DNA from: an uncultured bacterium
GTDB taxonomy: Bacteria; DRYD01
Assembly (NCBI GenBank): GCA_937139605.1
Contig: CAKZQG010000011.1
Span: 1 to 64,000 of the forward strand
Reading direction: 5' to 3'
Length of the DNA stretch: 64,000 bases
Notes under the pieces: model-generated
The model's database searches: none
Told to the model about the DNA's origin: nothing
The model's input: the letters and a program-made list of their open reading frames with translations, nothing else
Program-made: the position numbers and the translations under genes
Part shown: positions 38,151 through 58,912 of the stretch, one piece after another
How positions within the stretch are numbered: position 1 is the first letter of the stretch
Layout: every line of letters begins with the position of its first letter

Positions 38151-38151
38151 C

Positions 38152-40397: not shown

Positions 40398-40407
40398 ATT
40401 TTATTTT

Positions 40408-41424: not shown

Positions 41425-41447
41425 AAATAAGTCTCTCCTTTTTATAT

Positions 41448-42050: not shown

Positions 42051-42060
42051 ATGTATATTA

Positions 42061-42543: not shown

Positions 42544-42554
42544 AAAATAAAGAA

Positions 42555-43460
42555 TTAATCCGAATTATCTAAGTCTTCATCGTTTTGGTTATATAATTCT
42601 TTATGATTTTTATAGTCTTGAGAATAAAAATGTATTATTAACATTCCCCATAAACTTAAAAATAAGAAAATGATATTAGATAGATCTCTTAATTTCTTTT
42701 GTTTTTCATATGTTTTAGCTAATCCCCAGGTTATTGAAGCTGTCCATAATCCATTTGAAAGATGATATGCTACCGATAATGTAAATAGTTTATATATTAT
42801 TAATCCTATGGGTCTTAGTGGTGGTTTAAACCATATATTAACTTTTTCAAAAGTAAGATCTCTTTTAGCTGGAATATTTAGAGCATCTCTTATAAACTTA
42901 GGTAGATATTCATTAAACCTTACTGTTCTTAAATGAAACAATAAAGTAAATAAAATAATATAAGCTGTTATTCTTTGAAGTATAAACCTATAATTAGTTT
43001 CATATTTTAGGTTATAATTTATTTTGCTTGTTTTTAATAAAATTAAACCAATAATTATATGGATAGTTAGGGGTAGGTATATCCCAAATATTTCTATTAG
43101 TGGTAGCAAAGGGAATTTATGCATTTTTTTAGTAAATTTATTAAGGGTTTTTGGATCTTTTGCTAAAGAATTATTAATATAATGAAATATTAAAAAACCT
43201 CCTATAAATATTGTTCCAGTTAATGAGTGGATTCTTTTAAAAACTACATATGGAATAGAATCTATGATGTTAGTTAATTTATTTAATACAATTTTGCCAT
43301 TACCAACAAAATTGTTTAAGCTACTATCTACCTTTTGAATATAATTAAAGTTATTAGTATCATCGTTTGATTTTATTTTTTCTTTTTTATATTTTTTAAG
43401 TTTTTTATATAAGATAAAACCTGTTAATGTACTTGCACCTAAAATAACTGGTATTAACAT
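42555..43460 (-). CDS. Hypothetical integral membrane protein (301 aa)
   Basis: 6-7 hydrophobic helices, acidic C-terminal tail. No motif recognised. Confidence 0.35.
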   Translation of the reverse strand: MLIPVILGASTLTGFILYKKLKKYKKEKIKSNDDTNNFNYIQKVDSSLNNFVGNGKIVLNKLTNIIDSIPYVVFKRIHSLTGTIFIGGFLIFHYINNSLAKDPKTLNKFTKKMHKFPLLPLIEIFGIYLPLTIHIIIGLILLKTSKINYNLKYETNYRFILQRITAYIILFTLLFHLRTVRFNEYLPKFIRDALNIPAKRDLTFEKVNIWFKPPLRPIGLIIYKLFTLSVAYHLSNGLWTASITWGLAKTYEKQKKLRDLSNIIFLFLSLWGMLIIHFYSQDYKNHKELYNQNDEDLDNSD

Positions 43461-43664
43461 ATATTTTTTTTCTCTCCTTCTTTTTTAAGTATCTTATATC
43501 TTTTATTTTTTTATTATACCTTTATTTTTATTATCCTTTAGAAAAAAAAATAAAAAAAATAAAAGAGTTCCTATAATAGTTTATTAATAACTACTTATCA
43601 ATAAGAATTAAAAGCTTTTAACTCTAAAAAAACTCTCATTTATATTTAAAATTATTTTCTTTAT

Positions 43665-43871
43665 TTATTTGTTTTTTTTTATCATGTCGGATTTCTGTCT
43701 GATTAATGGCGGATTAGTTATCCTACCCTTTTCCTTGACAAAAATTACTGCTTTAATTTGCCTTTCATTTATCCCTATTAATAATTTTCCTCCATTAGTA
43801 TTAGCTGCTATAACCTTAAGATATTCATCTTTCCATTTTTCTTTAAACTCAATGTTTTGATTTTCTTTCAT
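43665..43871 (-). pseudogene. Remnant of an AlbA_2 / Schlafen-like putative DNA-binding-domain gene (N-terminal ~65 aa only)
   Basis: ENQNIEFKEKWKDEYLKVIAANTNGGKLLIGINE matches the start of the AlbA_2 domain (E..n.EFK..w......k.i.AFaNt.GG.l.iGv.d). Full-length proteins are 400+ aa; here the ORF ends after 68 aa. Confidence 0.4.
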
Positions 43872-43972
43872 AGAATTTTTAAACCATAACCTTTTTAAAT
43901 TTTAATGTTATTTTAATTATTTTAAATTAAAATTGTTATAAGGGAATTAAATTGCTTAATAATTTATTTTAT

Positions 43973-46900
43973 TCACTCTTTAAGCCCATATAATTCTAAT
44001 ACTAATTCATCTAATTCTTTTTGGATATCATCTAATTTTTTCTGTGCTTCTTGATTAGTTAATACCCCGTTAAATTTCTGCTTTTGGATAGCTATAGCTC
44101 TATCACATAAGCTCTCAAATACCCTTAACTGCTCTAATGTTGGAATAATAATCGGTAACTGACGAGCATCATTAATCTGGAAATGAACAGTTGTATTTAC
44201 AAAAGCATTCAAATAAGTAGAGATAAAACCAGAATTTAATATACTCACAATAAATTTAGCACTTACCATACTTGTATTAGGAAATAGAGACATACTAAGC
44301 ACATCATGTATACTTTTTTCCTTTATTCTACAGCGCACATCATAGCTAACATCTGTCCAGCAAAATCCTTCACGAAAGTAAAATTGCGGATTACGAACAA
44401 CAGGCATTCCTTCCCCCTTTTTACCCGAATTTTCTTTCAAAAATTTCACATTTTCTCTGCTCCAGTCAATATAGTAAGGAGTAGGAGCATACCATCTATT
44501 TCCATCCTTGTCTCCTTTATCATATGGCACAAAGGTTTTATCCCCTCTAATTCCGTTAAGTTTTTCATCATCAGTAAGATAATCTACATCAACTATTTCT
44601 TCATAACTTACAATGCGATATATCCATCCTTGCCCAAAAACATCTCGCCCATATTTTTCTTTAAGCTCATCAAAAAGCTGGCGTATCTCTTTTTCTTTTA
44701 AATTATTTAAATACGCCTGTGCATCAGCTTTGCTTTTTATATTTTCCTTTTTACAAAATTGTTCTACAAGCAAAAGCTTTTCAGGCCGTTCATTACGCAC
44801 CTTATCCGCCCACTTAGTTCCCTCTAAAACTCCTATATACTTACCATTATTAGCTGTTGCTAAACCCTGCCCTCCCTCTGTAATCAAACCAAGCAATGTA
44901 ATATCACCAGGTTTTAAAGATTTACGATAAATTTCAAGCTCTTTTTTATATTTTTCAATATTTTTACTTGTAGAAATTTTATCCCACCATTTGATAAGTA
45001 ATTCATTTACTTTTTTAGCAAGCTTTTGGTAAATTTTTTTATTAAAATCAGTAGGTATAAAAATAACTTTATTAGGAACATTGGTATAATCATTTTGCTG
45101 TATAGTGTATTTTTCTGGTTGTGTGATGTTATTTTTACCATCTAAAAAGGTTATCTGATGCCCAGGTTCTGGTTGTGATTTTTTTACAATAATTACACTG
45201 GTATCTACCATAGCGCTCTCAAAAGGATTAGCTGTATCAAAAATTTGAAGTATTGTGTTTTCTAATAAAAGATCCCGAAGATTCTTTTTAGTTTGAATAG
45301 TCCAATAAGTTTTAGAAGTAATATAAGTAAGTATCCCATTATTTTTTAATATCTGAAATCCTTTAAAAAAGAAATGATTATAAAGATCATCAGCAAAACC
45401 ATAGTATTTTTTTAATGATATTTTTAATTCTTCATTAACCCCTTTTGTAGAAACATATGGCGGATTAGAAATTACGATATCAAACCCACCCTTCTCTCTA
45501 AATACCTTTGGAAAAAATAATTTAAAATCAAAATTAATCTTATATCCAAAATTTTCCTGTGATTTTTCCAAGCGCCATTTTATTTTCTCATCTATTTTTT
45601 GCTTTAATTCCAATTTTTTTAAAGGATTAGTTTCAGAAAAATATTTATCCATTAATTCTTGAATCTCTTTTCCAATAGGAGAGTTCCAATTTTCAGGAAA
45701 TCCTAAAAGAGAATCACCACAAACAACCTTATAATCCAGATTCGGAAGGGGTTTTATATTATGAAAATCATCTTCATCAACAATCATAGAAAGCCAAAAC
45801 CTTAACTTACATATTTCAACAGCACCCGCATCTATATCAACCCCATAAAGAGAATTCTCTATACAATGTCGCTTCAAATCATAAGAATTAATCTCCTTAT
45901 TAAGATAAATAGCAAGAAGCTGCCTTAATTTTACAATCTGATGCATCATTCCAATAGGAAAAGCCCCTGACCCAACAGCAGGATCACAAATAGCTATATC
46001 TGAAAGAATCTTATCAATTTCTTTAGCATTTTCAATAATACTTTGTGAAATCTTATATTCATACTTTGTTTGCTTTTGTTCTCCAATGCTAATTTTTTCG
46101 TTCTTTTTAATAGCAATCCTTTCATTCTCTAAAATAAAATCCACATGTCTTACAAATTCCTCAATCTCTTTTTTATTTACTTTATCTTTAATTTCTGTTT
46201 CAAGGTAATTTATTAAACTTTCCTGGCACATATAATGTACAATTTCTGGGGGAGTATAATAAACCCCATATTCTTTATTAAACTTAGCTTCTTCTCCCTT
46301 TTTGCCAGAATTTAAGACCTTTACATATTGATCAAAATTATCTTGCCTTATTGCATTTAATTTTTCATAGATTTTTCCAAGTAATTCCGGATCAAGTGCT
46401 ACCTCTTTTTCAAGCGGTTCCTCTTCATTCACAGTAAAATTATACCTATCAAAAACATCAAGGATACCATCTCCAACATCCCCTTCCTTAGTTTTATTCC
46501 TATTAGAAAAAAGTTCATTAGGTAAAAGCACATCAACATTTACCCAATCAAAACCATTAGGCGGATCAAAAAGCCCACCATTTAAAAACGGAATCTTACA
46601 ATTAAATCTATTATAATAATGCTCATTATCACTTCTATCTATTCTTAATGCCTCATAAAATAAAGGCTCAAGGATATCATTATAAAAATTCTTATAATCT
46701 ACAAACTCTTTGTTAAATAATTTCCTAATAAAGTCTTTTGGACCTGTTGTCCAAGGTTTCCCTTTTTCAACTCCAAACCAACCCTTCTTCTGAAGGAAAT
46801 ATAAAAATGTAATCTGTCCCAGCAACTTCTTAGCAAAATCAACAGTACTAATATTTTTTATTTTAAACTCTTTACTCACCTTTAAATCCCTTTGAACAAG

Positions 46901-47563
46901 TTTATCAAGTTCAAGTTTAGTTTTTATAAATAAATCTCTATATTTTTCAAAGAATTCTTTTGTAACTACCTCAACATCAAAAGCTTTTTCTAAATCACTT
47001 AATGTAGGCTTAAAATAATCATTTTCAAGCAAAGGTAAGAATCTACTTTGTGCAGTATGACTTTTCTCATTTTTTCCAACAAGGAATGACCATCTTTTTG
47101 CAGGCGTTAATTCCTTTTCGACTTTAATTTTTCCTAAAGGATTTTCTTGAAAAGTATAATCCAATTTAACAAGAGAAAACCGCCAATCTTCATCATTAGG
47201 TGCTACAAAAGCTACAAGCGCGGCATCTTTAATAGTATTTGTTCCAAGTTTTCCACTTAAATATTCAGCAACAAAGTTTCTTTGAGCAGACCGAGCATGA
47301 TATAAAGAAAACTCCCTCCTTAGCTTTACAACCAAAATATCTATCTTCTTACCACCTTCATCTACATATCTTCCAATTCTTTCCCAAGAGCCAATAAACT
47401 CAAGGTATTTTTCAGTTATCCCTTGGATCCCAATCCTTGGCTCAAGTGCTTTAGTTATGTCATATTTTTTTAATAAATTAGCTATAAATTTAACAAAATT
47501 ATCTTTATTAAAAGGTTCTTCAAAAGTTAGCTTTATCAACCCTATTGCTTGCCCTCTGTTCAT
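43973..47563 (-). CDS. Large gamma-class N6-adenine DNA methyltransferase with N-terminal domain and C-terminal specificity (TRD-like) domain (PglX / type IIG-IIL-like)
   Basis: 1196 aa. Motif I CDPAVGSGAFPIG precedes motif IV ISNPPYVS (gamma-class order). ~500 aa N-terminal and ~450 aa C-terminal domains. Locally higher GC than flanks. Confidence 0.8.
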   Translation of the reverse strand: MNRGQAIGLIKLTFEEPFNKDNFVKFIANLLKKYDITKALEPRIGIQGITEKYLEFIGSWERIGRYVDEGGKKIDILVVKLRREFSLYHARSAQRNFVAEYLSGKLGTNTIKDAALVAFVAPNDEDWRFSLVKLDYTFQENPLGKIKVEKELTPAKRWSFLVGKNEKSHTAQSRFLPLLENDYFKPTLSDLEKAFDVEVVTKEFFEKYRDLFIKTKLELDKLVQRDLKVSKEFKIKNISTVDFAKKLLGQITFLYFLQKKGWFGVEKGKPWTTGPKDFIRKLFNKEFVDYKNFYNDILEPLFYEALRIDRSDNEHYYNRFNCKIPFLNGGLFDPPNGFDWVNVDVLLPNELFSNRNKTKEGDVGDGILDVFDRYNFTVNEEEPLEKEVALDPELLGKIYEKLNAIRQDNFDQYVKVLNSGKKGEEAKFNKEYGVYYTPPEIVHYMCQESLINYLETEIKDKVNKKEIEEFVRHVDFILENERIAIKKNEKISIGEQKQTKYEYKISQSIIENAKEIDKILSDIAICDPAVGSGAFPIGMMHQIVKLRQLLAIYLNKEINSYDLKRHCIENSLYGVDIDAGAVEICKLRFWLSMIVDEDDFHNIKPLPNLDYKVVCGDSLLGFPENWNSPIGKEIQELMDKYFSETNPLKKLELKQKIDEKIKWRLEKSQENFGYKINFDFKLFFPKVFREKGGFDIVISNPPYVSTKGVNEELKISLKKYYGFADDLYNHFFFKGFQILKNNGILTYITSKTYWTIQTKKNLRDLLLENTILQIFDTANPFESAMVDTSVIIVKKSQPEPGHQITFLDGKNNITQPEKYTIQQNDYTNVPNKVIFIPTDFNKKIYQKLAKKVNELLIKWWDKISTSKNIEKYKKELEIYRKSLKPGDITLLGLITEGGQGLATANNGKYIGVLEGTKWADKVRNERPEKLLLVEQFCKKENIKSKADAQAYLNNLKEKEIRQLFDELKEKYGRDVFGQGWIYRIVSYEEIVDVDYLTDDEKLNGIRGDKTFVPYDKGDKDGNRWYAPTPYYIDWSRENVKFLKENSGKKGEGMPVVRNPQFYFREGFCWTDVSYDVRCRIKEKSIHDVLSMSLFPNTSMVSAKFIVSILNSGFISTYLNAFVNTTVHFQINDARQLPIIIPTLEQLRVFESLCDRAIAIQKQKFNGVLTNQEAQKKLDDIQKELDELVLELYGLKE

Positions 47564-47594
47564 TTTAACTCACTTCCTTAAATATATTATTTTC

Positions 47595-48185
47595 TTAATA
47601 TTTATCACACTCTAAATAAAGAGATAAAATAACTTCTCTTTTCTCTGATGCCATATTTGATATTATATCTGAATTTATTATATCTGAGTTTATAGGAGAA
47701 TTTTCTGAATAATAGTTTTTCAAAAAAGCAGGAGAGATTTCCCTTTGTAAAACTTTAATAACACTTAATGGTTTTAGAATATCTTTTCCTAAGTTATTTA
47801 ATGATTTGAGAACATTTTTAACTGTTTTTTTGGGTAAAGCCATTTCTTCTAAACGGTTTATTACTTTTTCAAGATATTTTTGTTGATCTTCATTTAGCTG
47901 GTTAGCTCCTTTTTGTATTACTTTTAAAATTCTTAAAAGCTCATTATAACTACTTTTTCCTCCTTGTTTTCCAGATTCAACTATTTCATAAGTAGTTGAA
48001 TTATAAAAAGCAGTTTTATTTTTATCAAGTAATTCATAATAACTCTCAATATTTATGGTTGCTTTGGTTTCATTAGGTAAAGATTCAAAAATCTTTACAG
48101 CAGTTAAAAAATCAAGTTCAATTGTTTTTTCTTTATTTGATAAAAAGAATTTTAATAGTTTTCCTTTTCTAAAAAATGTTAGCAA
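47595..48185 (-). CDS. Hypothetical protein (196 aa) between helicase-nuclease and methyltransferase genes
   Basis: 31-nt gap to the MTase start and same strand as both neighbours, probably co-transcribed. No domain recognised. Confidence 0.4.
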   Translation of the reverse strand: MLTFFRKGKLLKFFLSNKEKTIELDFLTAVKIFESLPNETKATINIESYYELLDKNKTAFYNSTTYEIVESGKQGGKSSYNELLRILKVIQKGANQLNEDQQKYLEKVINRLEEMALPKKTVKNVLKSLNNLGKDILKPLSVIKVLQREISPAFLKNYYSENSPINSDIINSDIISNMASEKREVILSLYLECDKY

Positions 48186-48284
48186 TGAATTACAAGGATT
48201 AAAAGAATTAAAATGTTGTTTAAATAATTGATTTATAAGTGATGTTGTAGGGAGTATTTTAGCGGAGCGAGCTTTCTTTGGAAT

Positions 48285-50903
48285 CTACTTTATTTTTTCA
48301 AATAGTTCTGGATTGTTATTACGAATATCCTGGATAATTTTAAAATATTTTAACTCACTTTCTTCTTGCTCTTGTTCTTCTTGGGTAAGAATTTTTTTTG
48401 AAAGAAGTTTATCAAAAAGTTCATAAGAATGAACCGGTTCGCCTTCCATTAAAATAGCAGAATCACCACCAAGCAACGTTAAAAACGCTTCTATTTTAGA
48501 ACGTGCGATATTTGTAAGATCAATTTCATTATCAGCTTGCTTAGCAGGAAAAAAATTGAATATATAAATTTTATCAAATTTAGTATCTATACGATTAACC
48601 CTTCCTATTCTTTGCATCAATTTTGTAGGATTCCAAGGGATATCATAATTTATCACAATATTTGATCTATGAAGATTAACACCTTCTGAAAGGACTTCTG
48701 TTGAAACCAGTATTTTATAATTATCTTTTTTATTTTTGGCTCTTGCATCAAAGTTTTCTATTACTTTATCACGAGCATTCTCTAAGGAACCCCCATGAAA
48801 AAGTAAAGCTATTTCTCCAAAGTCTTTATTTATATTTTTTACTAAATACTCTGCGGTTTCTTTTGATTCTGTAAAAATAATTATTTTTTCACTATTTTTC
48901 AAAACTGAGTGTTCTTTTAAATTTGTCAAAAGAGTTTCAAGTTTTGGATCCCTGTTAATTTCATCCCACATTGATTTTATTTTTTTCAAAATCTCCAGAT
49001 CATTGTTTAAATCTTTTTCAAAATCTTTTCTAAAGTCATTACTTTGATATTTTTCAGCTTTCCCTTGTTCTATTAATTTTTGGATTTCTTCATCATCCCC
49101 TTGCTCTAATAATTCAAAAATTTTATTTATATGCTTCCTACTAACATAAACATTTCCCCGTTGGTATTCTTTAATAAACATTTCATAGGATTTAATAAAT
49201 CTATCGATACTATTTTTAAAAGCATAAAAGCTACTTTCAAGGCGCTTTACAAGTAAAATTTTCATAAATTTTCCCATATTTATCTGTGATTGCTTTTCAA
49301 GAGCTGTTATCTCTTTAGTAAGATATAATAACGGAGTATAACGAGAATATTTAAAATCCTTAGTTATCATTTCAATAGTTTCCATAAAAATCTGGTCTTC
49401 TTTATCATTAAGTTGGTAGTAAAATGGTTTTGGATCTTGAATATCCGGAAACTTTATATTATTTTTTTGTAAGTCCTGGGAAAAATAATTTTGAATTTCA
49501 GTTCTTGTGCGCCTAACCATAATATATTTTAAAATCTTATCCCTGATTTCTTTTGCAATCCTTTTATTCATTTCGATGTATTTATCGTAATCTTTATGTC
49601 TATCTATTTTTTTTAATTTTTCGTCAAGGCTAACAATAAATCTTTCAATATCTGGAATACCTGGTATAGTACTTTTTTTAGGGTTCTGGAATAGCTTAAC
49701 CTGAGCGAGTATATCTCTTGGTGAATTATTATAAGGAGTAGCGGAAACCAATATAACTTTTTTCCCACGACAAATTTCAGAGATATCTTCATAACTAATG
49801 GTTTCTTCATTTCTAAAACGATGAGATTCATCGATAATTATATTCGCATACTCTCTATTTTGAACTTCTTCTTTAGCTTTATCAAGCTCACCAATAGATA
49901 TAAATTTAGCAGGGATATTAAAATCATAAAACACATTAATCCAAGAGCCTGGATTATTTCTATTAAGAAGAGCAGGGGGAGCAATAACAAGTGTCCTACC
50001 TTCAAGCTGCTTAACAAGCATAGCTGTAATATAAGTCTTTCCAAGGCCAACTACATCAGAAATAAAAACCCCACCATGCTCCTGTAATATTTTCTTTGCA
50101 TTTAAAACCGCTTGCTCCTGATATTCCAATACTTTAAAATTTTCCGGCAAGTATTCAAAAAAAACTTTATCATCTAATGATAACTCATCCTTAAAATATT
50201 CATATAAAAATTTTAGATAAATTTCATAAGGAGTAATGTTTTGATTAAGATATGTTCTTTCATTTAAAGTTTGGACATATTTTTCACTAACATCAACCGA
50301 ATTTTCCCATAATTGTTCAAATTTTTCTTTAGCAAATTCATAATCATTTCTATTTTTTAGCTCAACATTAAATTCTAAGTTATCTTCAAGCCCAGATTGA
50401 GTGAAATTACTTGATCCAGTAATAACTCTTCCTATATCTCTATCACCTTCTTTAAAGGTTATAATATATAGTTTTGCGTGAATCTTTTGATATGGATAAA
50501 CTCTTATCTGAAGTTTTCCTTGTTTTATCCATTCTATAAACTTTCTTACTCCTTCTTCAACATCTAATTTATCTTCAGAATCCGACATCTCCTCTTCTAT
50601 TTCTTTTTCAATAATTTCCTTTGCTTGATAATGAGAAAACATTAATTTATATACTTCTCTATTTATACCAATCCCAACAAGGATTCTTATTCTTTCGGCT
50701 GTTTCAAGAGAATTATACAACTTATAAAATCCACTTATGTAAAAATAAGCGACTAAACAATCAAAAAATCTACAATCCTTTATTAGTTGTTTAAATCTAT
50801 CTTTAAGTGTTTTATTTTGCTCATTTATTATAAATGTTAAATCCAAGTGATTCTTAAGGATTTCTTTATTTATATTTTTATCTTCTTTTTTAAAAAAACT
50901 CAT
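48285..50903 (-). CDS. PLD-family nuclease domain fused to SNF2-family (SF2) helicase
   Basis: N-terminal HKD motif IHAKLYIITFKEGDRDIGRVITGSSNFTQSG (H-x-K-x4-D-x6-GSxN). Helicase motif I DVVGLGKT, motif II IIDESHRFRN, motif VI QRIGRVNRI. 872 aa. Confidence 0.8.
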   Translation of the reverse strand: MSFFKKEDKNINKEILKNHLDLTFIINEQNKTLKDRFKQLIKDCRFFDCLVAYFYISGFYKLYNSLETAERIRILVGIGINREVYKLMFSHYQAKEIIEKEIEEEMSDSEDKLDVEEGVRKFIEWIKQGKLQIRVYPYQKIHAKLYIITFKEGDRDIGRVITGSSNFTQSGLEDNLEFNVELKNRNDYEFAKEKFEQLWENSVDVSEKYVQTLNERTYLNQNITPYEIYLKFLYEYFKDELSLDDKVFFEYLPENFKVLEYQEQAVLNAKKILQEHGGVFISDVVGLGKTYITAMLVKQLEGRTLVIAPPALLNRNNPGSWINVFYDFNIPAKFISIGELDKAKEEVQNREYANIIIDESHRFRNEETISYEDISEICRGKKVILVSATPYNNSPRDILAQVKLFQNPKKSTIPGIPDIERFIVSLDEKLKKIDRHKDYDKYIEMNKRIAKEIRDKILKYIMVRRTRTEIQNYFSQDLQKNNIKFPDIQDPKPFYYQLNDKEDQIFMETIEMITKDFKYSRYTPLLYLTKEITALEKQSQINMGKFMKILLVKRLESSFYAFKNSIDRFIKSYEMFIKEYQRGNVYVSRKHINKIFELLEQGDDEEIQKLIEQGKAEKYQSNDFRKDFEKDLNNDLEILKKIKSMWDEINRDPKLETLLTNLKEHSVLKNSEKIIIFTESKETAEYLVKNINKDFGEIALLFHGGSLENARDKVIENFDARAKNKKDNYKILVSTEVLSEGVNLHRSNIVINYDIPWNPTKLMQRIGRVNRIDTKFDKIYIFNFFPAKQADNEIDLTNIARSKIEAFLTLLGGDSAILMEGEPVHSYELFDKLLSKKILTQEEQEQEESELKYFKIIQDIRNNNPELFEKIK

Positions 50904-50992
50904 CTTCTTTAATTTTATAATTAAATTACTATTTTAATTTTTCATTTTCTTTTTATTTTCCCCTTTTTAAATTTAATAAAAAGTTCCATATA

Positions 50993-51045
50993 TTTAACAT
51001 TTTTTTAAAAATAATTTAACATCTTGTTAATATTTTTAATTTAAG
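50993..51045 (+). repeat. 53-bp direct repeat, copy 1 (promoter-like; identical to copy 2 at 51782)
   Basis: TTTAACATttttttaaaaataaTTTAACATcttgttaatatttttaatttaag. Contains candidate -35 TTGTTA and a -10-like TATATA/TATAAA just downstream. Lies 30 nt before the DUF2283 gene. Confidence 0.8.
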
Positions 51046-51074
51046 GGTATATAAAGAAGCGTAGTAAATAATTT

Positions 51075-51368
51075 ATGGGAAACAAAGTTAATGCCAAAAA
51101 AAATAATAAAGAAAATAAAAGCAAAGATAACAAGATAAATTATTTACATTACTTATTAAGAAATACGAGAGTATGGATTGATCCAGAAACTGACATTTTT
51201 TATTTATCATTAAAAAAAGGCCCATCATTTGATTCGCAAGAAATAAATAATAACATTATAATAGAGTTTGACAATGAAAATAAAATAATAGGATTAGAAA
51301 TTAGGAACCTATCTAAAATAGATTTTAATAAAATTATTGAATACACAAAAAAAGTACTTACAGATTAA
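51075..51368 (+). CDS. DUF2283-family small protein (putative antitoxin-like partner)
   Basis: WIDPETDIFYLSLKKGPSFDSQEINNNIIIEFDNENKIIGLEI matches the DUF2283 pattern (YD.E.D.LYi.l......e....i.D.d..G.ivGIEI). Confidence 0.55.
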   Translation: MGNKVNAKKNNKENKSKDNKINYLHYLLRNTRVWIDPETDIFYLSLKKGPSFDSQEINNNIIIEFDNENKIIGLEIRNLSKIDFNKIIEYTKKVLTD

Positions 51369-51406
51369 TATAAACTGCTAAAAACCAAAGCACATAAACC
51401 TAATAA

Positions 51407-51772
51407 ATGAAGGTAGAGAATATTGTTTTATTTTTTACAAGGAATTCATACCTTTTTATTTTTTCAAAGAAATATTTATATTTAAAAGAAATTATATTCA
51501 CAAGACACTGTGAATTACGAATAAAAGAAAGACAATTAGACAAAAATAAAATCATAAAAATATTCTATAAATTTAATTTTTCACTATATGATATAGATAA
51601 CAAAAACTTTATTATAATTTCCAACAAAACAATTGATAATTACCACTTTATAATAATTTTCAATATTAAAAACAATACAGCAAAAATTATAACTATTTAT
51701 CCATGTAAAGATATAAAAAATGAGTTAAAAAAAAAGCTGGGAAAAAGATGGTTTTACTATTTTAATTTTTAA
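51407..51772 (+). CDS. DUF4258-family small protein (putative toxin-like partner)
   Basis: IIFTRHCELRIKERQLDKNKIIKIF ... KIITIYPC matches DUF4258 (fs.HA.eRm.eRgi....v..vl ... viTvy). 38-nt gap after the DUF2283 gene. Confidence 0.55.
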   Translation: MKVENIVLFFTRNSYLFIFSKKYLYLKEIIFTRHCELRIKERQLDKNKIIKIFYKFNFSLYDIDNKNFIIISNKTIDNYHFIIIFNIKNNTAKIITIYPCKDIKNELKKKLGKRWFYYFNF

Positions 51773-51781
51773 ATCCATAAG

Positions 51782-51834
51782 TTTAACATTTTTTTAAAAA
51801 TAATTTAACATCTTGTTAATATTTTTAATTTAAG
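51782..51834 (+). repeat. 53-bp direct repeat, copy 2 (putative native flgF promoter region)
   Basis: Identical 53-mer to 50993-51045, directly upstream of the flgF RBS AAAAGGGGGTG. Confidence 0.8.
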
Positions 51835-51861
51835 AATATAGAAAAGGGGGTGTTAGAGAAT

Positions 51862-52626
51862 ATGTTTTATGAAGGAATGCAAAAAGCAGTAGAAAGCATG
51901 AGCTATTTAGTTAAAATGCAAGAGGTTATAACAAATAACTTAGCAAACGCCTCTACAAGTGGATATAAACAAGATACCACTGTTGTAGCTAATTTCGGAG
52001 ATTTATTAAAAGAAAACGTTAATAAAATCGAACTAACAGGGATGGATAACAGCGCAGAGGTAGTAGTTTCTGAAAACCCATCATTACTTGTAAAACAAAA
52101 AACAAGTTTTGCAAAAGGGAATATTGCTAAAACTGATATAGATTTTGATTTCGCGTTAGACGGTAATGGCTTTTTTGTTGTAGATACCCCATACGGACTA
52201 AGATACACTCGAAACGGTTCATTTACTGTAGATGCTGATGGAATACTTAGAACTAAAGATGGAGGAATAGTCTTAGGAGAAAATGGACCAATTAAAATAA
52301 CAGGAAAAAAATTCGAAGTTAAAGAAGATGGAAGTATATATGTTGATAACAAAAAAATAGATAAATTACAATTAGTTGATTTTAATGATTATGGTGCATT
52401 AGTAAAAGAAGGCGCAAGTTATTTCAAATTATCTCGAGATGTCCAAAGATTACCTGCAAATACTAGAGTTTTACAAGGATATGTAGAAACTTCTAATGTT
52501 AATGCAGTTAAAGAAATGGTTAATATGGTTAATATATTAAGAAGTTTTGAAATGTCTCAAAAAGTTTTACAATCCCAAGATGAAGCACTTAAAAAACATA
52601 TAGAACAAATATCTAGAATGAGATAA
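51862..52626 (+). CDS. flgF: Flagellar basal-body rod protein FlgF (FlgF/FlgG family)
   Basis: N-terminal rod motif ITNNLANASTSGYK and a C-terminal FlgE/F/G domain. Start set at ATG 51862 (MFYEGMQ), 9 nt after the GGGGGTG RBS. Confidence 0.75.
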   Translation: MFYEGMQKAVESMSYLVKMQEVITNNLANASTSGYKQDTTVVANFGDLLKENVNKIELTGMDNSAEVVVSENPSLLVKQKTSFAKGNIAKTDIDFDFALDGNGFFVVDTPYGLRYTRNGSFTVDADGILRTKDGGIVLGENGPIKITGKKFEVKEDGSIYVDNKKIDKLQLVDFNDYGALVKEGASYFKLSRDVQRLPANTRVLQGYVETSNVNAVKEMVNMVNILRSFEMSQKVLQSQDEALKKHIEQISRMR

Positions 52627-52661
52627 AAAATATTTTCTTAAATTAAAGGAGGTGTTAAGAT

Positions 52662-53396
52662 ATGTTTAGTTCATTTTATACAGCAGCAAGTGGAATGGAT
52701 GCTCAACTTAAAAAAGTAGAAATTTTATCCCAAAACTTAGCTAACGCTAATACTATAACTTACAAACAACAAAGAATTAATTTCCAAGAACTTATGTATC
52801 AAAAGCTAGGGGATATTCAAGAAGGTACTGGTGTAAAATTAGGACAAACTGAAAGAGTCTTTAAAACAGGTGCAATGCAAAGAACTGATAACCCCTTAGA
52901 CGTAGCTATCCAAGGAAATGGATTCTTTAAAGTAGAAACCCCAGAAGGGAAAATATTATATACACGTGATGGAAGATTAGCTGTAGAAAACGGAGAATTA
53001 GTCGTTAAAGATCTAGGGAAACTTAACATAAAAGTACCTTCCGATGTTAGCAATGTAACAGTTGAAGAAGATGGAACAGTTATAGCCTATAAAGGGAAAG
53101 ATAAAGTTGAATTAGGAAAAATAAAACTATATGATTTTATAAATCCTAATGGTTTGAAAATAGCTGGTAAGAATGCTTTTGAAGCTACTAGCGAAGCAGG
53201 AAAACCCTTTGAAATAGAACCCAAAAAAGATGGAAATGCAATAATCCTAGCAGGTTTCATTGAAAAAAGTAATGTAAATATTATTAACCAAATGATGGAA
53301 ATAGTAGCTTCCCAAAGGAATTATGAATTAGTATCAAAATCAGTAGAATCTGCGGATCAAATTGCAAGAATGGCTTCCCAAATGAAAAAACAATAA
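52662..53396 (+). CDS. flgG: Flagellar distal rod protein FlgG
   Basis: MFSSFYTAASGMDAQLKKVEILSQNLANANTITYKQQRINFQELMYQ is canonical FlgG N-terminus. Conserved C-terminal IINQMMEIVASQRNYEL. RBS AAAGGAGGTG. Confidence 0.85.
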   Translation: MFSSFYTAASGMDAQLKKVEILSQNLANANTITYKQQRINFQELMYQKLGDIQEGTGVKLGQTERVFKTGAMQRTDNPLDVAIQGNGFFKVETPEGKILYTRDGRLAVENGELVVKDLGKLNIKVPSDVSNVTVEEDGTVIAYKGKDKVELGKIKLYDFINPNGLKIAGKNAFEATSEAGKPFEIEPKKDGNAIILAGFIEKSNVNIINQMMEIVASQRNYELVSKSVESADQIARMASQMKKQ

Positions 53397-53587
53397 TAAT
53401 AAGGTAGGATTGAAGTAGTTTCTAAAAACTATTAAAAAACATATATTACCAGAAAGAAAACTATCAACTATAAAAATCATTTTTTAAAGAGATATATAAA
53501 ATAAGCGGACTAACATTGATAAGCTACATCTTCTAAAGGGGGGAGGGGGGAAACAAGGAAAATCTAAGAGGATTGGGATAGGAAAGC

Positions 53588-53706
53588 AAGGAGGTTAGGT
53601 TTTGTGCTTAATGTAAGGCATATAATTAGTACCGCCTGCAGACCATAATATGGCGGAATACAAATAGGTCTGCCAAAAGTGTATATTCTTATACACTTTT
53701 GTTAAG
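53588..53706 (+). promoter_or_regulatory. Copy B of conserved leader cassette (TATAAT at 53621-53626, crossing helices, terminator-like hairpin) immediately 5' of flgJ-like gene
   Basis: AAGGAGGTTAGG...GCATATAATTAGTACCGCCTGCAGACCATAATATGGCGGAATACAAATAGGTCTGCCAAAAGTGTATATTCTTATACACTTTTGTTAAG. The hairpin AAAAGTGTATA-ttct-TATACACTTTT ends 16 nt before the ATG at 53722. Confidence 0.6.
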
Positions 53707-53721
53707 TATGGGAATTAAATT

Positions 53722-54021
53722 ATGGACTTTAATAAAATAGAATTAAATAATGTTAAAAGCTATCAAGATTATGTTAATTATAATGAAGCACAAAAAAGTG
53801 CTAAAGAATTTGAAGCAATATTTTTAAATATGATGTTATCTGAAATGTTTAAAACTGCTACTAAAAATCCATTTCTATCAGACGAATCCTCAGGAGTTAA
53901 TAATACTCAAAAAGAAATGATGTTTAGTTTATTAACTCAACAACTATCTCAACAATGGGCTCAAAATAATTCCTTACTATCTGATCAAATACTACAACAA
54001 TTACAAAATGATCAATTCTAA
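53722..54021 (+). CDS. Flagellar rod-binding-domain protein (FlgJ N-terminal domain only)
   Basis: SAKEFEAIFLNMMLSEMFKT matches the FlgJ rod-binding-domain signature (A..EFEA.FL..MLKSMR). 99 aa, no hydrolase domain. Confidence 0.6.
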   Translation: MDFNKIELNNVKSYQDYVNYNEAQKSAKEFEAIFLNMMLSEMFKTATKNPFLSDESSGVNNTQKEMMFSLLTQQLSQQWAQNNSLLSDQILQQLQNDQF

Positions 54022-54045
54022 AATTATCTATATATAAAAATAACA

Positions 54046-55245
54046 ATGAATTTTAAAGAGATAAACTTTAATAATAAAAATATACAAATTATTAATTTTG
54101 ATTCTTTTTTCATTAAAGATTTAAAAATTATTGATAATTTAAATAATAATAGTGAATCTCATAATTTAAGTAATTCAAGTAATTTAGATAAAGTTATCAT
54201 AAATTTTAATAAAGAAAATTTAAACGATTCTAATTTAATTGAGTTTTTTAAAAGTATATATAATTTTTGTAAAGATAATAATTTAGACTTTGATTTTAAA
54301 CCTTTTATTGAAGGTTATAATAATTATATCTTTAAACCTAAAATAGCAATTCTTTATATACTTAAAGAATTACTTTCTTTTAATGGAAAAATAAATAATT
54401 ATCTTATTTCAATAAGAAATAAAATAGAAGAAAGAAATTTTTTAATAAATTCTTTACCTTTTGATAATCAAGGAAAATTTATTATATATTTTAAAAAACA
54501 AAAAGAATTAGAAATTTTTTTATCTTTCTTTAAAACTTTTTTATCTAAAAACTACGTAATAAATGAAGAAAATAAAGTTGATATTATTAAAAATAAAATA
54601 ATAGATGAGCTAAGTAAAAAATATTTCCTTACTCATAAATTTTATAAAATAACTGATATAACTAAAAAAGCAGAAATTATAGCCAATATTATTAAAAGTG
54701 GTGGTTTGTTATCAAAGCAACTTAGAAAAGAATTACTAAACAATGCTGACCAAGGGATTGGAAAACTTGACGAATTAACAGGAGGAAGTAATTACGTATT
54801 TTTTAGATTATCAAAATATCCTGATGAAGATGATCTTGTTTTTGATTTAAAAATATTAAAAGAAAACGAACACATAATTCATGATGCTGATAAATGGGGA
54901 GATACTATAAATGATAAAAAAAATAGGGTACCCATAGATAAAATAAATTCTACATATATTGGGGAAGTATTACTTAAAAACATAGCTGATATTAAATATT
55001 TAAAATATATTAACGTTAAAAGTAATGAAGAAAAAAATAAATTAATAGAAGAATTAAAAAAATTAGGAATAAATGAAATAAATGGAAAAGATCTAAATGA
55101 GGTTATTCAAGTTTCTTCAAGAAATGATTCTATAAAAAAGAAATTAATGCTATGGACTTTTAAATTATATAATGTAGTTGAATCATTTGATCCTTTTAGA
55201 ATTACTCCTAAGATTATGAAATTAATTTATGATAGATTATATTAA
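54046..55245 (+). CDS. Hypothetical Asn/Lys-rich protein (399 aa) downstream of flgJ-like gene
   Basis: Open frame with 24-nt gap after the FlgJ-like gene. No domain recognised. Confidence 0.4.
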   Translation: MNFKEINFNNKNIQIINFDSFFIKDLKIIDNLNNNSESHNLSNSSNLDKVIINFNKENLNDSNLIEFFKSIYNFCKDNNLDFDFKPFIEGYNNYIFKPKIAILYILKELLSFNGKINNYLISIRNKIEERNFLINSLPFDNQGKFIIYFKKQKELEIFLSFFKTFLSKNYVINEENKVDIIKNKIIDELSKKYFLTHKFYKITDITKKAEIIANIIKSGGLLSKQLRKELLNNADQGIGKLDELTGGSNYVFFRLSKYPDEDDLVFDLKILKENEHIIHDADKWGDTINDKKNRVPIDKINSTYIGEVLLKNIADIKYLKYINVKSNEEKNKLIEELKKLGINEINGKDLNEVIQVSSRNDSIKKKLMLWTFKLYNVVESFDPFRITPKIMKLIYDRLY

Positions 55246-55482
55246 AATTATTAAAATAAAGTAAAATAAAAAATGTTATACTATGAGGGGGAGGGGTAAA
55301 AAGGTTGCCAAGAACTATTAAAAATGTTTACTCCAACCTAAACCTTAACAGCAAACCAAAGCTAAAATCTCAAAGCAACCAGTGAAAAGAATTTGTAAAG
55401 AGTATTTAAGAGAGTTTTTAAGGAAACGTGGGGTATTTTCAACAGGGGCTTACCTTTGATAAAGAAAATCTAATAGGAAAGT

Positions 55483-55608
55483 AAAGAAGTTAGGAATTGT
55501 ACTTGGCGCAAAGCATATAATTAGTACCGCCTGCAGACCATAGGGCTAACGTGGCGGAATACAAATAGGTCTGCCAAAAGTGTATAAGAATGTACACTTT
55601 TGCTTAAC
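55483..55608 (+). promoter_or_regulatory. Copy C of conserved leader cassette (TATAAT at 55516-55521) immediately 5' of membrane-protein gene. Extended homology with copy A reaches back to about 55380.
   Basis: AAAGAAGTTAGG...GCATATAATTAGTACCGCCTGCAGACCATAGGGCTAACGTGGCGGAATACAAATAGGTCTGCCAAAAGTGTATAAGAATGTACACTTTTGCTTAAC. Ends 15 nt before the ATG at 55624. Confidence 0.6.
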
Positions 55609-55623
55609 AAAGGCTAAGTAAAT

Positions 55624-56256
55624 ATGAATCTAATAGATATAATTTTTATTATTTGTTTTGCTATTGTGTTATCTGCTTTAACAGGACTAAGGACTTTCTT
55701 ACCCATTACTACTTTTAGTATATTAGCTAAATTTAATCTAATTAAACTTAATATTTATAATACTTCTTTTTATAATTTTATAACAGATGACAGAGTATTA
55801 TTAGTTTTTATTATTGCTACTATCTTAGAAGTACTAAGTGATAAAATCCCTGCTATAGATAATTTTTTGGATAATGTTCTAATATTTATAAAACCAATTT
55901 TTTCCTTTATATTGAATTATAATTTATTAAACAGTCTAAATTTAAGTGAGTGGCAATTATTTTTAATTAGTTTTAGTTTATCTTTATTTTTAACAAGTTC
56001 AATAACTACATCAAAAAATGTAATAAGATTAACTTCTACTACCACCACTTTAGGGACTTTTAATATTTTTATAAGTTTTTTAGAAGACTTACTTGTTATC
56101 ATTAAAACAGTATTATCTGCTTTATTTGTTGGTTTTGTTATTATTTTTTCTATAGTATTTATAGTAATATCAGCATTTATAGGATATAAGTTTTTTACAA
56201 AAATGATAGGATTTTTTAAGAATGTAAAGGGAATTAAGGAAAAAGGGATAATATAA
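55624..56256 (+). CDS. Hypothetical integral membrane protein (210 aa, ~6 TM)
   Basis: Hydrophobic helices throughout. No motif recognised. Confidence 0.45.
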   Translation: MNLIDIIFIICFAIVLSALTGLRTFLPITTFSILAKFNLIKLNIYNTSFYNFITDDRVLLVFIIATILEVLSDKIPAIDNFLDNVLIFIKPIFSFILNYNLLNSLNLSEWQLFLISFSLSLFLTSSITTSKNVIRLTSTTTTLGTFNIFISFLEDLLVIIKTVLSALFVGFVIIFSIVFIVISAFIGYKFFTKMIGFFKNVKGIKEKGII

Positions 56257-56262
56257 TAATAT

Positions 56263-56336
56263 CGGGGTGTAGCTCAGCTTGGCAGAGCGCAGGCATGGGG
56301 GGCCTGAGGTCGCCGGTTCAAGTCCGGCCACCTCGA
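56263..56336 (+). tRNA. tRNA-Pro (anticodon GGG)
   Basis: Acceptor CGGGGTG/CACCTCG (one G-U), D-arm GCTC-AGCTTGGCA-GAGC, anticodon stem CAGGC/GCCTG with loop ATGGGGG (U33, GGG, G37), T-arm GCCGG-TTCAAGT-CCGGC, discriminator A. 74 nt. Confidence 0.8.
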
Positions 56337-56353
56337 TAATTTAAAACAATAAA

Positions 56354-58912
56354 ATGATTACTAAAACTTCTAAAATTACTATCTCTAAAATATATAATCT
56401 AAACTCTATTGATAACATAATTGATGTTTTCATTACCGATTATTTCTTATTTATTATATCCAAAGACTTAATTATTCACATAATTAATAGAATAAATAAT
56501 TATGTTTTTTCTTTTAAAGTTATCATTTTTGAAAAGGAAGACAATATACTATTTGAATTTCTTAAAATAATTGATATAAAAAAGCTAAACAAAGACACAT
56601 TCGAAGCATCTTTACTAATTAAAAATATCCTAAAAGGAATATATTTCTTAAATATTTACATAATAACTAAGGATAATGAATTCAAAATATTACTAAATGA
56701 TTCTTATTATTTAGATTCCCGATTTATAAATTTCATAAATCATAATAGCTCACTAAATATTAATGATTCTCTTAACGATATATTAATTTTAGTAGATAAC
56801 GGAATATACAACATAAATTCAAAGTCTTTTTTTTATAAAATAGAAGATATTTTAAAATCTACTTATATAGATATAAAAGATATAATTTATTCATTTTTTA
56901 TTAATCAGAATCTATTTTTTGTTGATAAAAAAGGATTTATATTTATCTTCGAAATTGATAAAGATAAGGAATTAAAATTTATAAATTCATTTTTCTTAGA
57001 TAGTTTTTATCATAAAAATCTTAAAAATATTAAACATTTTTATATCTCAGATAATATTGTTATTTTTGTTGATAATTTAATATATGCTATATCCAATTTA
57101 GATAATATATTAGACAATATAAATGAAATTAAAATAAAAAAATACTCTACTTGGGAGTTATTTAAAGATTTTTATTTATTAACAAAAAATTCTAATGAGA
57201 TTTTTAAGGATATTATATTTTATAATAATAATTATTATTTAGTTTTTGAAAATTATTTAGTGCTTTTAAAAGTGGAAGCTAATAATTTTAAATTTACAAA
57301 GTTAAAAAATTTTGAATGGGAAAAAGAAAATAATTTAATTAAATTAAAAATTATAAATAATCAAGAACTTTGGGTTTTCTATAACCAAAAAATATGGGTT
57401 TTCCAAAATATCCTAGAAAACTCCTTATATAAAGAATTAACTTTATCATTTGAATCTAATCAAGAATTACTATCAATTAAAGATAAATATAACAAAAATG
57501 ATTTAGAAAATACTTTAAAAGAAAAAGAAATCTTAAAGGATAAAGATATATTTGAAATACTAGATTCTAATAATGATAATATTTTGTATAATAATTTTAA
57601 AGTAGTTTCTATAAAAAAATATAATGAATTTTATTTAATTTTTTTAAATGTTCCATTTTTTGGTATATTGGATAACAAAAATGTTTTCTTTTATCCGTTT
57701 TTATTTGATAATTTTACCGAAAATTATAATTATAAAAAAATTAATATTATTTCTATTTTAGATAATTTGTTATTTTTTAAATTAGAAGATAATTATTATT
57801 TTGGAGAATTAGAATTTACTTTTGAACCTTATGTAAAAACTACTGTTAAAAATATTAATAAAATTAATACATTAGTAAACGAAGATAAAATATTAAGTAA
57901 TCCTATTAGATTCTTAAACAATAATGTCTTATTTTCATATCAAAATGAATTATTTATTTTGAATTTAGGTAAAGAATCTAAAGACTATACTCTAAAAAAA
58001 TTTGACCTGAGAAACGTTTCTTTATCAAATATAAATTATTTTAATGATAACTTTGTTTATTCATTTTATATTAAAGACAGTAATATTATTTTAAAAATAT
58101 ATGAACTAGATACTATAAATTTCAAAATAAACATACTTAAAGAATTTATTTTGGAAAATATATCTGATTTCTACAAAAATTTACTGATTAATAGCATTTT
58201 ATTAGATTTAAAAATTATAGATAATAATAAACTTTATCTTTCTATTTTAAAAAATAATCAAATCTATGATTTAGAAATTACTAATAATATTCAATTTAAA
58301 TTATTGAAAAATTTTAAATTGAATGTAGAAAATATTTTAAACGTTTTCAAAATAAATGAAACTATCTTCTTTATTGATTATGATAAAATATATTATTTTA
58401 ATATATCATTAAATTCTTTAAACTTCATTAAATTATTTGAAACACTTAATAAAGTTAATCTGCAAAATAATTTAGATGTTTTTATATTTAATAATCTAAT
58501 TGTCATAGGAAAAATAGAAGATTTCTCAAAATGGGAAAAAATAGTATTCACTTATACCAATGAAAATATATTAGATATATTATTTTATAAAGATAAATTG
58601 CTAATAATATTAGAAAATTCTATAGCTACTGATATACCTAATAAAATTTTAGATATAGAAAAAAATAATTTTATCGAGTTATTAAAACTAGATAATGTCA
58701 TTTACTTAAAGAAATATTTTAAAAATAAGCTTTTAAAAGAAAATAAATTATTTTTATTAGATGATATTGGAGATTTCTGGATAGTTGATATTCAAAATAA
58801 AGATTTAATTAAATCCTATTTGGGTTTTTTAAATGAAGGAGAATTTTATTTAATTGATAATAATATATATATAATAACTAAAGAAGGGTATTCTATAAAA
58901 ATAGAAGTATAA
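56354..58912 (+). CDS. Hypothetical Asn/Ile/Lys/Phe-rich repetitive protein (852 aa)
   Basis: Begins 18 nt after tRNA-Pro. Many short beta-strand-like repeats (YYF, IFF, NNN). No domain recognised. Confidence 0.35.
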   Translation: MITKTSKITISKIYNLNSIDNIIDVFITDYFLFIISKDLIIHIINRINNYVFSFKVIIFEKEDNILFEFLKIIDIKKLNKDTFEASLLIKNILKGIYFLNIYIITKDNEFKILLNDSYYLDSRFINFINHNSSLNINDSLNDILILVDNGIYNINSKSFFYKIEDILKSTYIDIKDIIYSFFINQNLFFVDKKGFIFIFEIDKDKELKFINSFFLDSFYHKNLKNIKHFYISDNIVIFVDNLIYAISNLDNILDNINEIKIKKYSTWELFKDFYLLTKNSNEIFKDIIFYNNNYYLVFENYLVLLKVEANNFKFTKLKNFEWEKENNLIKLKIINNQELWVFYNQKIWVFQNILENSLYKELTLSFESNQELLSIKDKYNKNDLENTLKEKEILKDKDIFEILDSNNDNILYNNFKVVSIKKYNEFYLIFLNVPFFGILDNKNVFFYPFLFDNFTENYNYKKINIISILDNLLFFKLEDNYYFGELEFTFEPYVKTTVKNINKINTLVNEDKILSNPIRFLNNNVLFSYQNELFILNLGKESKDYTLKKFDLRNVSLSNINYFNDNFVYSFYIKDSNIILKIYELDTINFKINILKEFILENISDFYKNLLINSILLDLKIIDNNKLYLSILKNNQIYDLEITNNIQFKLLKNFKLNVENILNVFKINETIFFIDYDKIYYFNISLNSLNFIKLFETLNKVNLQNNLDVFIFNNLIVIGKIEDFSKWEKIVFTYTNENILDILFYKDKLLIILENSIATDIPNKILDIEKNNFIELLKLDNVIYLKKYFKNKLLKENKLFLLDDIGDFWIVDIQNKDLIKSYLGFLNEGEFYLIDNNIYIITKEGYSIKIEV

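Follow-up and report, generated by a model that had tools for sequence, protein, structure and literature searches.

Introduction

Toxin-antitoxin (TA) pairs move as small cassettes, and the landing and expression of promoter-less cassettes outside integrons are poorly understood. Among the described systems closest to the locus reported here are type II modules of the DUF4258 family, which is listed as a BECR-fold TA toxin family without an experimental reference and for which antitoxin then toxin is given as the usual gene order (PMC11980606, Gerdes 2025). A preprint places DUF4258 in the BECR fold's colicin-like branch (bioRxiv 10.64898/2026.08.28.747851). A mention of DUF2283 together with FseA/QseM (PMC4755241) was not used, as the family number given there is suspected to be that of a different DUF.

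Here, we analysed a stretch of 64,000 nucleotides (nt) of contig CAKZQG010000011.1, referred to as the window, in which a DUF2283 gene and a DUF4258-like gene stand upstream of the flagellar rod gene flgF, between two identical 53-nt direct repeats that we call R. Judged by the relatives of its FlgF protein, the source is an uncultured Calescibacterium-like hot-spring bacterium. In related lineages, R copies whose ends agree within 1-2 nt enclose a vapBC-like pair that is not homologous to this one, and relatives with an empty site have a single R. On balance, we lean towards the view that the locus is an inherited slot, that a TA cassette lacking its own promoter is driven there by a duplicate of a host promoter, and that recombination between the R copies homogenises them, deletes the cassette and allows its replacement.

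Results

Two copies of the flgF upstream region enclose two small genes

The 53-mer R (TTTAACATTTTTTTAAAAATAATTTAACATCTTGTTAATATTTTTAATTTAAG) occurs exactly twice in the window, both times on the + strand, at 50993-51045 (copy 1, c1) and at 51782-51834 (copy 2, c2), in agreement with a first-pass annotation of this DNA. No further match was found in the window at up to three mismatches, and none was found in 100 dinucleotide shuffles (0 expected by chance). c1, an exact 53-nt copy of the putative flgF promoter/operator region, ends 29 nt upstream of the start codon of the DUF2283 gene, and the right end of c2 lies 27 nt before the flgF ATG (51862). As had been proposed, c2 is the native flgF upstream region: it is the lone copy at this place in two related genomes that lack the small genes (L001 and L113), as the first-pass annotation had predicted for such relatives, and it is partly conserved in L005, L004 and L007. 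The placement of c1 in front of the DUF2283 gene and of both small genes between the copies was likewise borne out by the positions of the open reading frames (ORFs).

The similarity was also said to extend outward from the exact core, and it does so over 101 nt: positions 50972-51072 (+) around c1 are 81% identical to 51761-51861, reaching roughly the start codon of each downstream gene. Each 30-nt flank of the core matched at 17 of 30 positions, compared with a mean of 11.2 (standard deviation 2.6) for background low-GC 30-mers of the window (P(≥17) = 0.022 per flank). This extended similarity (~110 nt in all, both start codons reached) hints at a duplication, or a subsequent conversion tract, that went beyond the exact core. 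GC content is only ~21% around the repeat. A 17-mer common to 50926 and 51754 (TTACTATTTTAATTTTT) was considered as a further piece of the duplication; it was not significant in a broad search (score 34 vs 30.7 ± 4.5), was nominally significant (p 0.002) only if the search was limited to the two flanks, and is left as a possibility.

To date, 23 contigs with the DUF2283 protein were inspected (NCBI, ENA and Logan assemblies among others). All contigs sampled from this species had the repeat; among them, five distinct places (L133-L137) had the same layout, and c1 and c2 were 53/53 identical in four of the five. Because the same structure is found in independent assemblies from different sources, the R-pair-R layout is not an assembly artefact.

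The DUF2283/DUF4258 pair is a probable toxin-antitoxin module

The DUF2283 gene (51075-51368, +) encodes a putative antitoxin of 97 amino acids (aa) that passes the gathering score of PF10049 (56 bits, cutoff 23, E 4.5e-15). Its domain occupies residues 33-79 (profile positions 2-48 of 49) and follows a Lys/Asn-rich N-terminal extension, and the protein is 100% identical on at least 23 contigs. The second gene (51407-51772, +) encodes a 121-aa DUF4258-like protein, a putative BECR-fold RNase toxin. A full HMMER search with this protein returned 12 homologues at E ≤ 1e-3, of ~92-98 aa, which align to its residues 28-116; its first 27 residues are without counterpart in them. DUF4258 was the best family in all ten of the homologues that were scanned, six of which scored above the cutoff, and all residues that are invariant in the alignment (H34, R42, D62, T96, R114 and W115) are present in the window protein. 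An AlphaFold model built on the homologue alignment reached a pLDDT of 83.6, with residues 1-19 disordered, and the top neighbours of this model in the PDB by Foldseek were RelE, MqsR, YafQ, ParE and a colicin-type RNase (TM scores 0.4-0.55). Two points count against the toxin assignment: the protein's own PF14076 match, which covers profile positions 1-70 of 71, stays below the Pfam cutoff (19.6 vs 25 bits), and the structural neighbours are individually non-significant (E 0.07-1). PDB sequence searches with both small proteins gave chance-level matches only.

The two genes are co-directional and separated by a 38-nt gap, and both proteins carry N-terminal extensions of ~27-32 aa. In the closest DUF4258 homologue (44% identity; L149, L150) the DUF4258 gene comes first and the DUF2283 gene follows, overlapping it. 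Since DUF4258 adjoins DUF2283 there as well, the two families pair elsewhere, in the opposite order. The earlier statement that the gene order is reversed from the usual one thus holds against the closest homologue but not against the published family table, in which antitoxin then toxin is the usual order (PMC11980606). Taken together, the pair, already described as toxin-antitoxin-like in the first reading and plausible as a type II module, is probably a TA module of unusual order with N-terminal extensions on both proteins. A word-indexed homologue search with the DUF2283 protein returned only the protein itself, and no other location of the cassette was found.

The same slot carries a vapBC-like pair in related lineages

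The first-pass annotation had taken the locus for the footprint of an insertion by target duplication or recombination. As a single recent insertion with target-site duplication, this reading is not supported, since relatives have R copies with matching ends around a vapBC-like pair that is not homologous to that of the window. We found the R-pair-R-flgF layout with such a pair in at least ten loci of two clades, clade B (L002, L032, L129, L130, L143-L146) and clade C1 (L147/L148, the closest relatives of the empty L001). The vapBC-like cassette consists of a 56-63-aa ORF directly upstream of a PIN-domain (VapC-like) gene. The PIN domain scored 44.8 bits in L147 and 29.7 bits in L002 (cutoff 23.6), and the PIN protein has 718 homologues, several of them named VapC by their sources; the small vapB-like ORFs gave no Pfam family match. 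Across these loci the repeat starts with (A/T)TTAACA and ends with TTTAAG(A), as in the window, with agreement within 1-2 nt. The cassettes are minimal, with essentially no regulatory DNA of their own: they have 21-29 nt between the end of R and the first start codon, and 0-12 nt between the toxin stop codon and c2. The genes to the left of the slot vary and are of at least four kinds (secA, two type IIG enzymes ~28% identical to that of the window, a PCNA-like gene, and others).

L143-L148 have an intact PIN cassette (139-141 aa); those of L002, L032, L129, L130 and L132 carry differing internal deletions or frameshifts. Two contigs of one sample (L130 and L131, JGI 3300033894) have identical flgF genes; one has a 127-aa PIN gene, and the other has a frameshifted antitoxin gene and a PIN gene with a large internal deletion. 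Because cassette state differs between them while flgF is identical, cassette decay is polymorphic within one population. In L143/L146, the final 9 nt at the cassette 3' end recur in the left flank of c1 (6-9 nt overall; weaker in the window), possibly a relic of an earlier tandem unit. The PCNA-like sliding-clamp gene (PF00705) of L147 (201-941) adjoins the slot on its upstream side and may indicate mobile or viral DNA. A PCNA-like clamp is unusual for bacteria. Viral contigs were scanned for R and for the DUF4258 and PIN proteins, with no match.

Relatives with an empty site occur in both sister clades. In L001, whose FlgF is 98% identical to that of the window, the genes that the window has on its left side (GHMP kinase, recR, lspA and an Sdh_cyt-like gene) directly precede flgF; a single R-like copy stands there, and the small genes are absent. 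By BLAST, window positions 38016-43557 correspond to L001 4165-9800 and positions 51783-53402 to L001 9930-11561. The DNA that the window has in excess of L001 thus amounts to 8.2 kb (43558-51782), made up of a defence island, c1 and the gene pair, and not to 0.79 kb. L113 has a single R in a secA context, again with no cassette. In more distant species (L003-L008, L138-L142), der/EngA, a protein kinase gene or other genes stand directly before flgF, with neither cassette nor duplication. The pattern used in the metagenome scan, TTTAACNNNTTRTTAATATTTTT, proved too loose, and only 3 of its 118 loci were real relatives.

The slot is inherited and its two repeats evolve together

Distances between flgF genes gave the tree (window, ((L001, L147/148), clade B)). 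Between L147 and L144, identity at third codon positions was 74% for flgF and 72.8% for the PIN gene. As the two genes are equally diverged, the vapBC-like pair was vertically inherited since clades C1 and B split; and as the pair co-diverged with flgF, the R-TA-R-flgF layout was ancestral to these clades. The distance of L113 to the filled clade-B genomes is no greater than their distances to one another, and L001's lone R matches c1 of its filled relative L147 exactly, for which reasons L001 and L113 are best read as cassette losses.

Where the cassette is intact, c1 and c2 differ by 0 nt (window, L143), 2 nt (L147, L144) or 3 nt (L146); where it has decayed, they differ by 3 nt (L002, with an internal deletion in the PIN gene) or 4-6 nt (L032, L129, L130). 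The R copies of three different lineages differ by 5-8 nt, and the two copies of a genome share lineage-specific states, a pattern that indicates concerted evolution of c1 and c2. Furthermore, c2 is conserved and c1 degrades together with its cassette. In L137, a 98%-identical strain of the window's species, c1 has changed and the toxin gene is no longer called. Since the slot has been inherited over a long time, at least in clades B and C1, the perfect 53/53 match of the window's copies reflects homogenisation or selection and not recency.

R contains paired dyads and a candidate promoter

Each R copy contains two operator-like dyads of the motif TTAACA-N3-TGTTAA with centres 22 nt apart. In c1 these are TTAACATTTTTTTAA (50994-51008) and TTAACATCTTGTTAA (51016-51030), and the same pair can be read in c2 at 51783-51797 and 51805-51819. 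With up to one mismatch, the dyad motif had 5 matches in the 64-kb window vs 1.16 expected, and 4 of the 5 were inside the R copies. The half-sites, unlike the 3-nt spacer, do not differ among the three lineages, and the empty-slot genomes L001 and L113 keep both dyads intact. Constant half-sites with a variable spacer are the usual signature of a site for a dimeric protein, which makes the dyads candidate operators. When modelled as DNA, the dyad folds as a hairpin. Elsewhere in the window, the R dyad has a single near-match (TTAATATCCTGTTAA, 1 mismatch, 2826-2840), just downstream of a flgC-like gene. This second flagellar rod gene (148 aa, 2344-2790, +), 49 kb away, has no R-like sequence upstream.

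A putative sigma-70-type promoter was read from the sequence of c1 at 51005-51033 (+), with a -35 element TTAAAA (51005-51010), a 17-nt spacer and an extended -10 element TGtTAATAT (51025-51033); the corresponding elements of c2 are at 51794-51799 and 51814-51822 (+). Transcription from it would plausibly start a few nt before the right end of R. An alternative candidate (-35 TTGTTA, 18 nt, TATAGA/TATATA) spans the right end of R, with its -10 element just outside R. No terminator-like site was detected in 50600-52000, no Rfam family matched in 43000-54500, no tRNA gene adjoins the slot, and a repeat search gave no inverted repeat pairing the two cassette ends.

Neighbourhood of the slot in the window

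To the right of c2, the flgF-like basal-body rod gene (51862-52626, +; its ORF is also readable from a GTG at 51850) is followed by a flgG-like rod gene (52662-53396, +), identified by ORF and family match as the next gene of the operon. To the left of c1 lies the defence island that is absent from L001 (43558-50992, -). It comprises, from its left end, a 64-aa remnant of an AlbA_2/Schlafen-type DNA-binding domain (43680-43871, -), probably a truncated gene; a type IIG restriction-modification enzyme (43973-47563, -); and an HKD+SNF2 helicase (47595-50903, -) with an in-frame stop at 48285-48287. This nonsense codon replaces Arg873 and splits the 1102-aa protein into 872-aa and 196-aa ORFs; L133, L135 and L136 have the Arg codon and an uninterrupted gene, and L134 has the same stop. 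Defence genes seem to have landed repeatedly upstream of c1. Insertion of the island exactly at the left edge of R, suggested when the intergenic region of L001 was aligned at length, with gaps, to 43461-43670, is not claimed: BLAST homology stops at 43557 (L001 9800), and the distal alignment is weak. A replication origin or terminus at the repeat was also discarded, since the cumulative GC-skew minimum near 51 kb largely tracks gene orientation and the upstream gene of clade B is co-directional.

Further features of the window and its relatives were recorded. Three type IIG (Eco57I-type) genes with ~28% mutual identity (L143 1-2720, L146 1-2825, and the window gene at 43973-47563) stand directly left of the TA slot in three lineages, in different orientations. 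Between a 99-aa gene after flgG and a DUF4126 gene, a 1.6-kb stretch of ~18% GC (54004-55635) holds a 399-aa ORF (54046-55245, +) without Pfam or PADLOC match; the stretch is present in L133-L136, and L002 has only ~275 nt there. Next to a tRNA-Pro gene (56262-56337), on its right, an 852-aa ORF (56354-58912) of 15-17% GC with no family match may be another inserted element. An AAA_23/SMC_N-type ATPase (60232-61927, +) is apparently broken into two ORFs of 97 and 287 aa with a 4-nt overlap, possibly a disrupted defence ATPase, and a 180-aa ORF without family match follows it.

Discussion

A proposed inherited slot behind a duplicated host promoter

In the explanation that we favour with some reserve, R would be the core promoter/operator region of the flgF-flgG rod operon, with dimer-type dyads overlapping plausible sigma-70 elements. 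In an ancestor of a Calescibacterium subclade, R would have been duplicated around a two-gene TA module that had no promoter of its own. c1 would then drive the module and c2 would continue to drive flgF; transcripts from c1 would probably read through into flgF, since no terminator lies in between. Recombination between the copies (gene conversion) would keep both copies of a genome near-identical, would sometimes delete the cassette precisely and leave one R, as in L001 and L113, and would also permit exchange of the resident cassette. The cargo of the slot would be the vapBC-like pair in most lineages and the non-homologous DUF2283/DUF4258 pair in the window's species. The unrelated pair may have reached the same ends by R-mediated replacement from an unsampled donor, by a site-specific process or by independent duplication.

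In addition to the two points on the toxin assignment given above, several observations tell against this explanation. Recombination between R copies does not account for the arrival of an unrelated pair at the same repeat ends; its replacement by an illegitimate yet precise event is improbable, and independent capture would imply a site-specific process. Comparison of the window's cassette with the vapBC cassettes revealed no vapBC sequence or remnant in it, and the DUF2283 homologue search yielded no donor with R-DUF2283-DUF4258-R elsewhere. Gene conversion is deduced from distances over only 53 nt, and co-selection by one regulator could mimic the pattern. Promoter activity is attributed to R from its sequence only, and a consensus promoter scan of the region gave no excess of promoter-like sites over shuffles and listed other weak candidates.

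Alternative explanations

R might instead be an att-like recombination site as well as a promoter, at which a recombinase acting in trans, with its gene elsewhere in the genome, inserts, excises and swaps promoter-less TA cassettes, so that the window pair and the vapBC pairs were captured independently. Such a system would have parallels in integron cassettes at attI/attC and in integrase-less elements mobilised in trans. This would account directly for two non-homologous cassettes whose repeat ends agree within 1-2 nt, for empty alleles that resemble precise excisions, and for R copies that are more alike within a genome than between lineages. The left flank of c1 that repeats the cassette 3' end in L143/L146, and more weakly in the window, could be left over from an earlier array of tandem units; rearrangements and defence islands are concentrated directly left of c1, and R is itself composed of dyads. 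However, no integrase, transposase or serine recombinase domain was present in any window ORF scanned, R lacks the R' box of attC sites (GTTRRRY), and its dyad spacer is 3 nt, against the 6-8-nt centre of tyrosine-recombinase core sites. Neither a third copy nor an array was seen in any locus examined, the co-divergence of vapBC with flgF leaves little room for turnover over a long time, and the scanned viral contigs held no R copies or cassette relatives. We regard exchange in trans as possible but doubtful. The same holds for its more specific form, for which we have only limited credence, namely that R is dual-purpose, a flagellar promoter and at the same time the boundary or recombination site of a one-slot exchanger of promoter-less TA cassettes that carry no recombinase or are served by one acting in trans. 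If true, this would be a minimal integron-like system on a housekeeping promoter, and it could link TA activity to flagellar rod expression.

A second alternative, compatible with the favoured inherited slot, is that the duplication serves regulation: the dyads would be operators of a cassette-encoded or shared repressor, and two copies of R would place flgF and the TA module under common control, coupling synthesis of the rod to the module's state. Antitoxins can regulate other promoters through copies of their own palindrome, as MqsA does. The two dyads at 22-nt distance in both copies, their constant half-sites and variable spacer in three lineages, and the co-evolution of c1 and c2 within lineages would all fit. 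A cassette-encoded binder is unlikely, though, because two unrelated cassettes use the same R; we know of no DNA-binding role for DUF2283, the vapB-like ORFs have no Pfam match, and the empty-slot genomes retain both dyads. Regulatory coupling as the explanation of the locus thus appears unlikely.

A single recent insertion of the DUF2283/DUF4258 pair, with a 53-bp target-site duplication or with a promoter copy carried in, is less probable still. The 53/53 identity of the copies and the lone copy in L001, which lacks the pair, would agree with it. Yet the same duplication brackets another TA pair in the sister clades, where it is old, and the weaker similarity that continues for ~30 nt past the exact core on both sides would not result from a clean target-site duplication. 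To our knowledge, a 53-nt staggered cut would be far longer than that of any transposase. A transposon or insertion sequence with target-site duplication was rejected on the same lines, there being no transposase in the cassette or the other window ORFs scanned, no inverted repeats at its ends and a duplication of at least 53 nt.

An assembly artefact or a chance repeat can be practically dismissed: the ~21% GC around the repeat does inflate short matches, such as the 17-mer at 50926 and 51754, but no shuffle of 100 gave a 53-mer match, independent assemblies from different sources agree on the structure, and the repeat is shorter than typical short sequencing reads.

Significance and comparison with known systems

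The locus offers a natural allelic series at one site in uncultured hyperthermophile relatives, namely empty, with an intact vapBC-like pair, with a decaying vapBC-like pair and with the DUF2283/DUF4258 pair, and its filled slots are bounded by two copies of the putative host promoter that evolve in concert. The series bears on whether a host promoter can serve as a landing pad, whether 53-nt repeats suffice for cassette loss and exchange, and whether flagellar rod expression is wired to a TA module. If the answers are negative, the locus would be an ordinary TA pair in a defence-island hotspot.

The gene pair shares with type II DUF4258/DUF2283 TA modules the two small, adjacent, co-directional genes, the invariant toxin residues and possibly, as predicted, a RelE/ParE-type RNase fold. 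It differs from them in its order, DUF2283 then DUF4258 with a 38-nt gap, whereas the nearest homologue is reversed and overlapping; in having no recognisable promoter of its own and standing behind a copy of a putative host promoter; and in its N-terminal extensions.

As for the slot, a literature search found no published description of one like it. Integron cassettes and clusters of attC sites lacking integrases (CALINs), including the TA cassettes of chromosomal integrons, are similarly short, mostly promoter-less and flanked by similar direct repeats, with different cassettes in one position; there, too, repeats are more alike within a genome than between species, and TA cassettes are common cargo. 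In contrast to these, R lacks attC architecture, its dyad being a 6-3-6 palindrome; there is one cassette per locus and no array; R itself is the putative promoter of a housekeeping operon; and the vapBC cassette was inherited vertically over long periods. An attC assignment was examined and rejected: ATTTAAC in R fits the R'' box (RYYYAAC), but the only GTT motif, GTTAATA, does not fit R' (GTTRRRY), and the window ORFs scanned held no Phage_integrase or IntI domain.

Integrase-less, att-flanked (cis-mobilisable) elements and Xer elements integrated at dif provide a second parallel, as they are small recombinase-less inserts between direct repeats of their target and leave one repeat at the empty site. 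R, unlike their sites, is not at a tRNA gene or a gene 3' end and does not have the 11-6-11 layout of dif. Its half-site TGTTAA resembles the XerD arm, but its arms are 6 nt with a 3-nt spacer, compared with 11-nt arms and a 6-nt centre in the 28-nt dif site, and an Xer/dif site was not accepted; nor was a dif position at ~51 kb, where the GC-skew turn is a minimum and a terminus would give a maximum. No cognate integrative element or recombinase for R was identified among the window ORFs scanned. Homologous recombination between short direct repeats matches the precise loss to one repeat, the homogenised copies and the possible former tandem unit; it explains maintenance and loss of the slot, but not unrelated cassettes at the same ends. 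Taken together, the pair adds a new member with a rearranged layout to a TA family that is known but unstudied, and the slot, while departing from the defining features of integron cassettes and of integrase-less att-flanked elements wherever these could be compared, resembles both in outcome.

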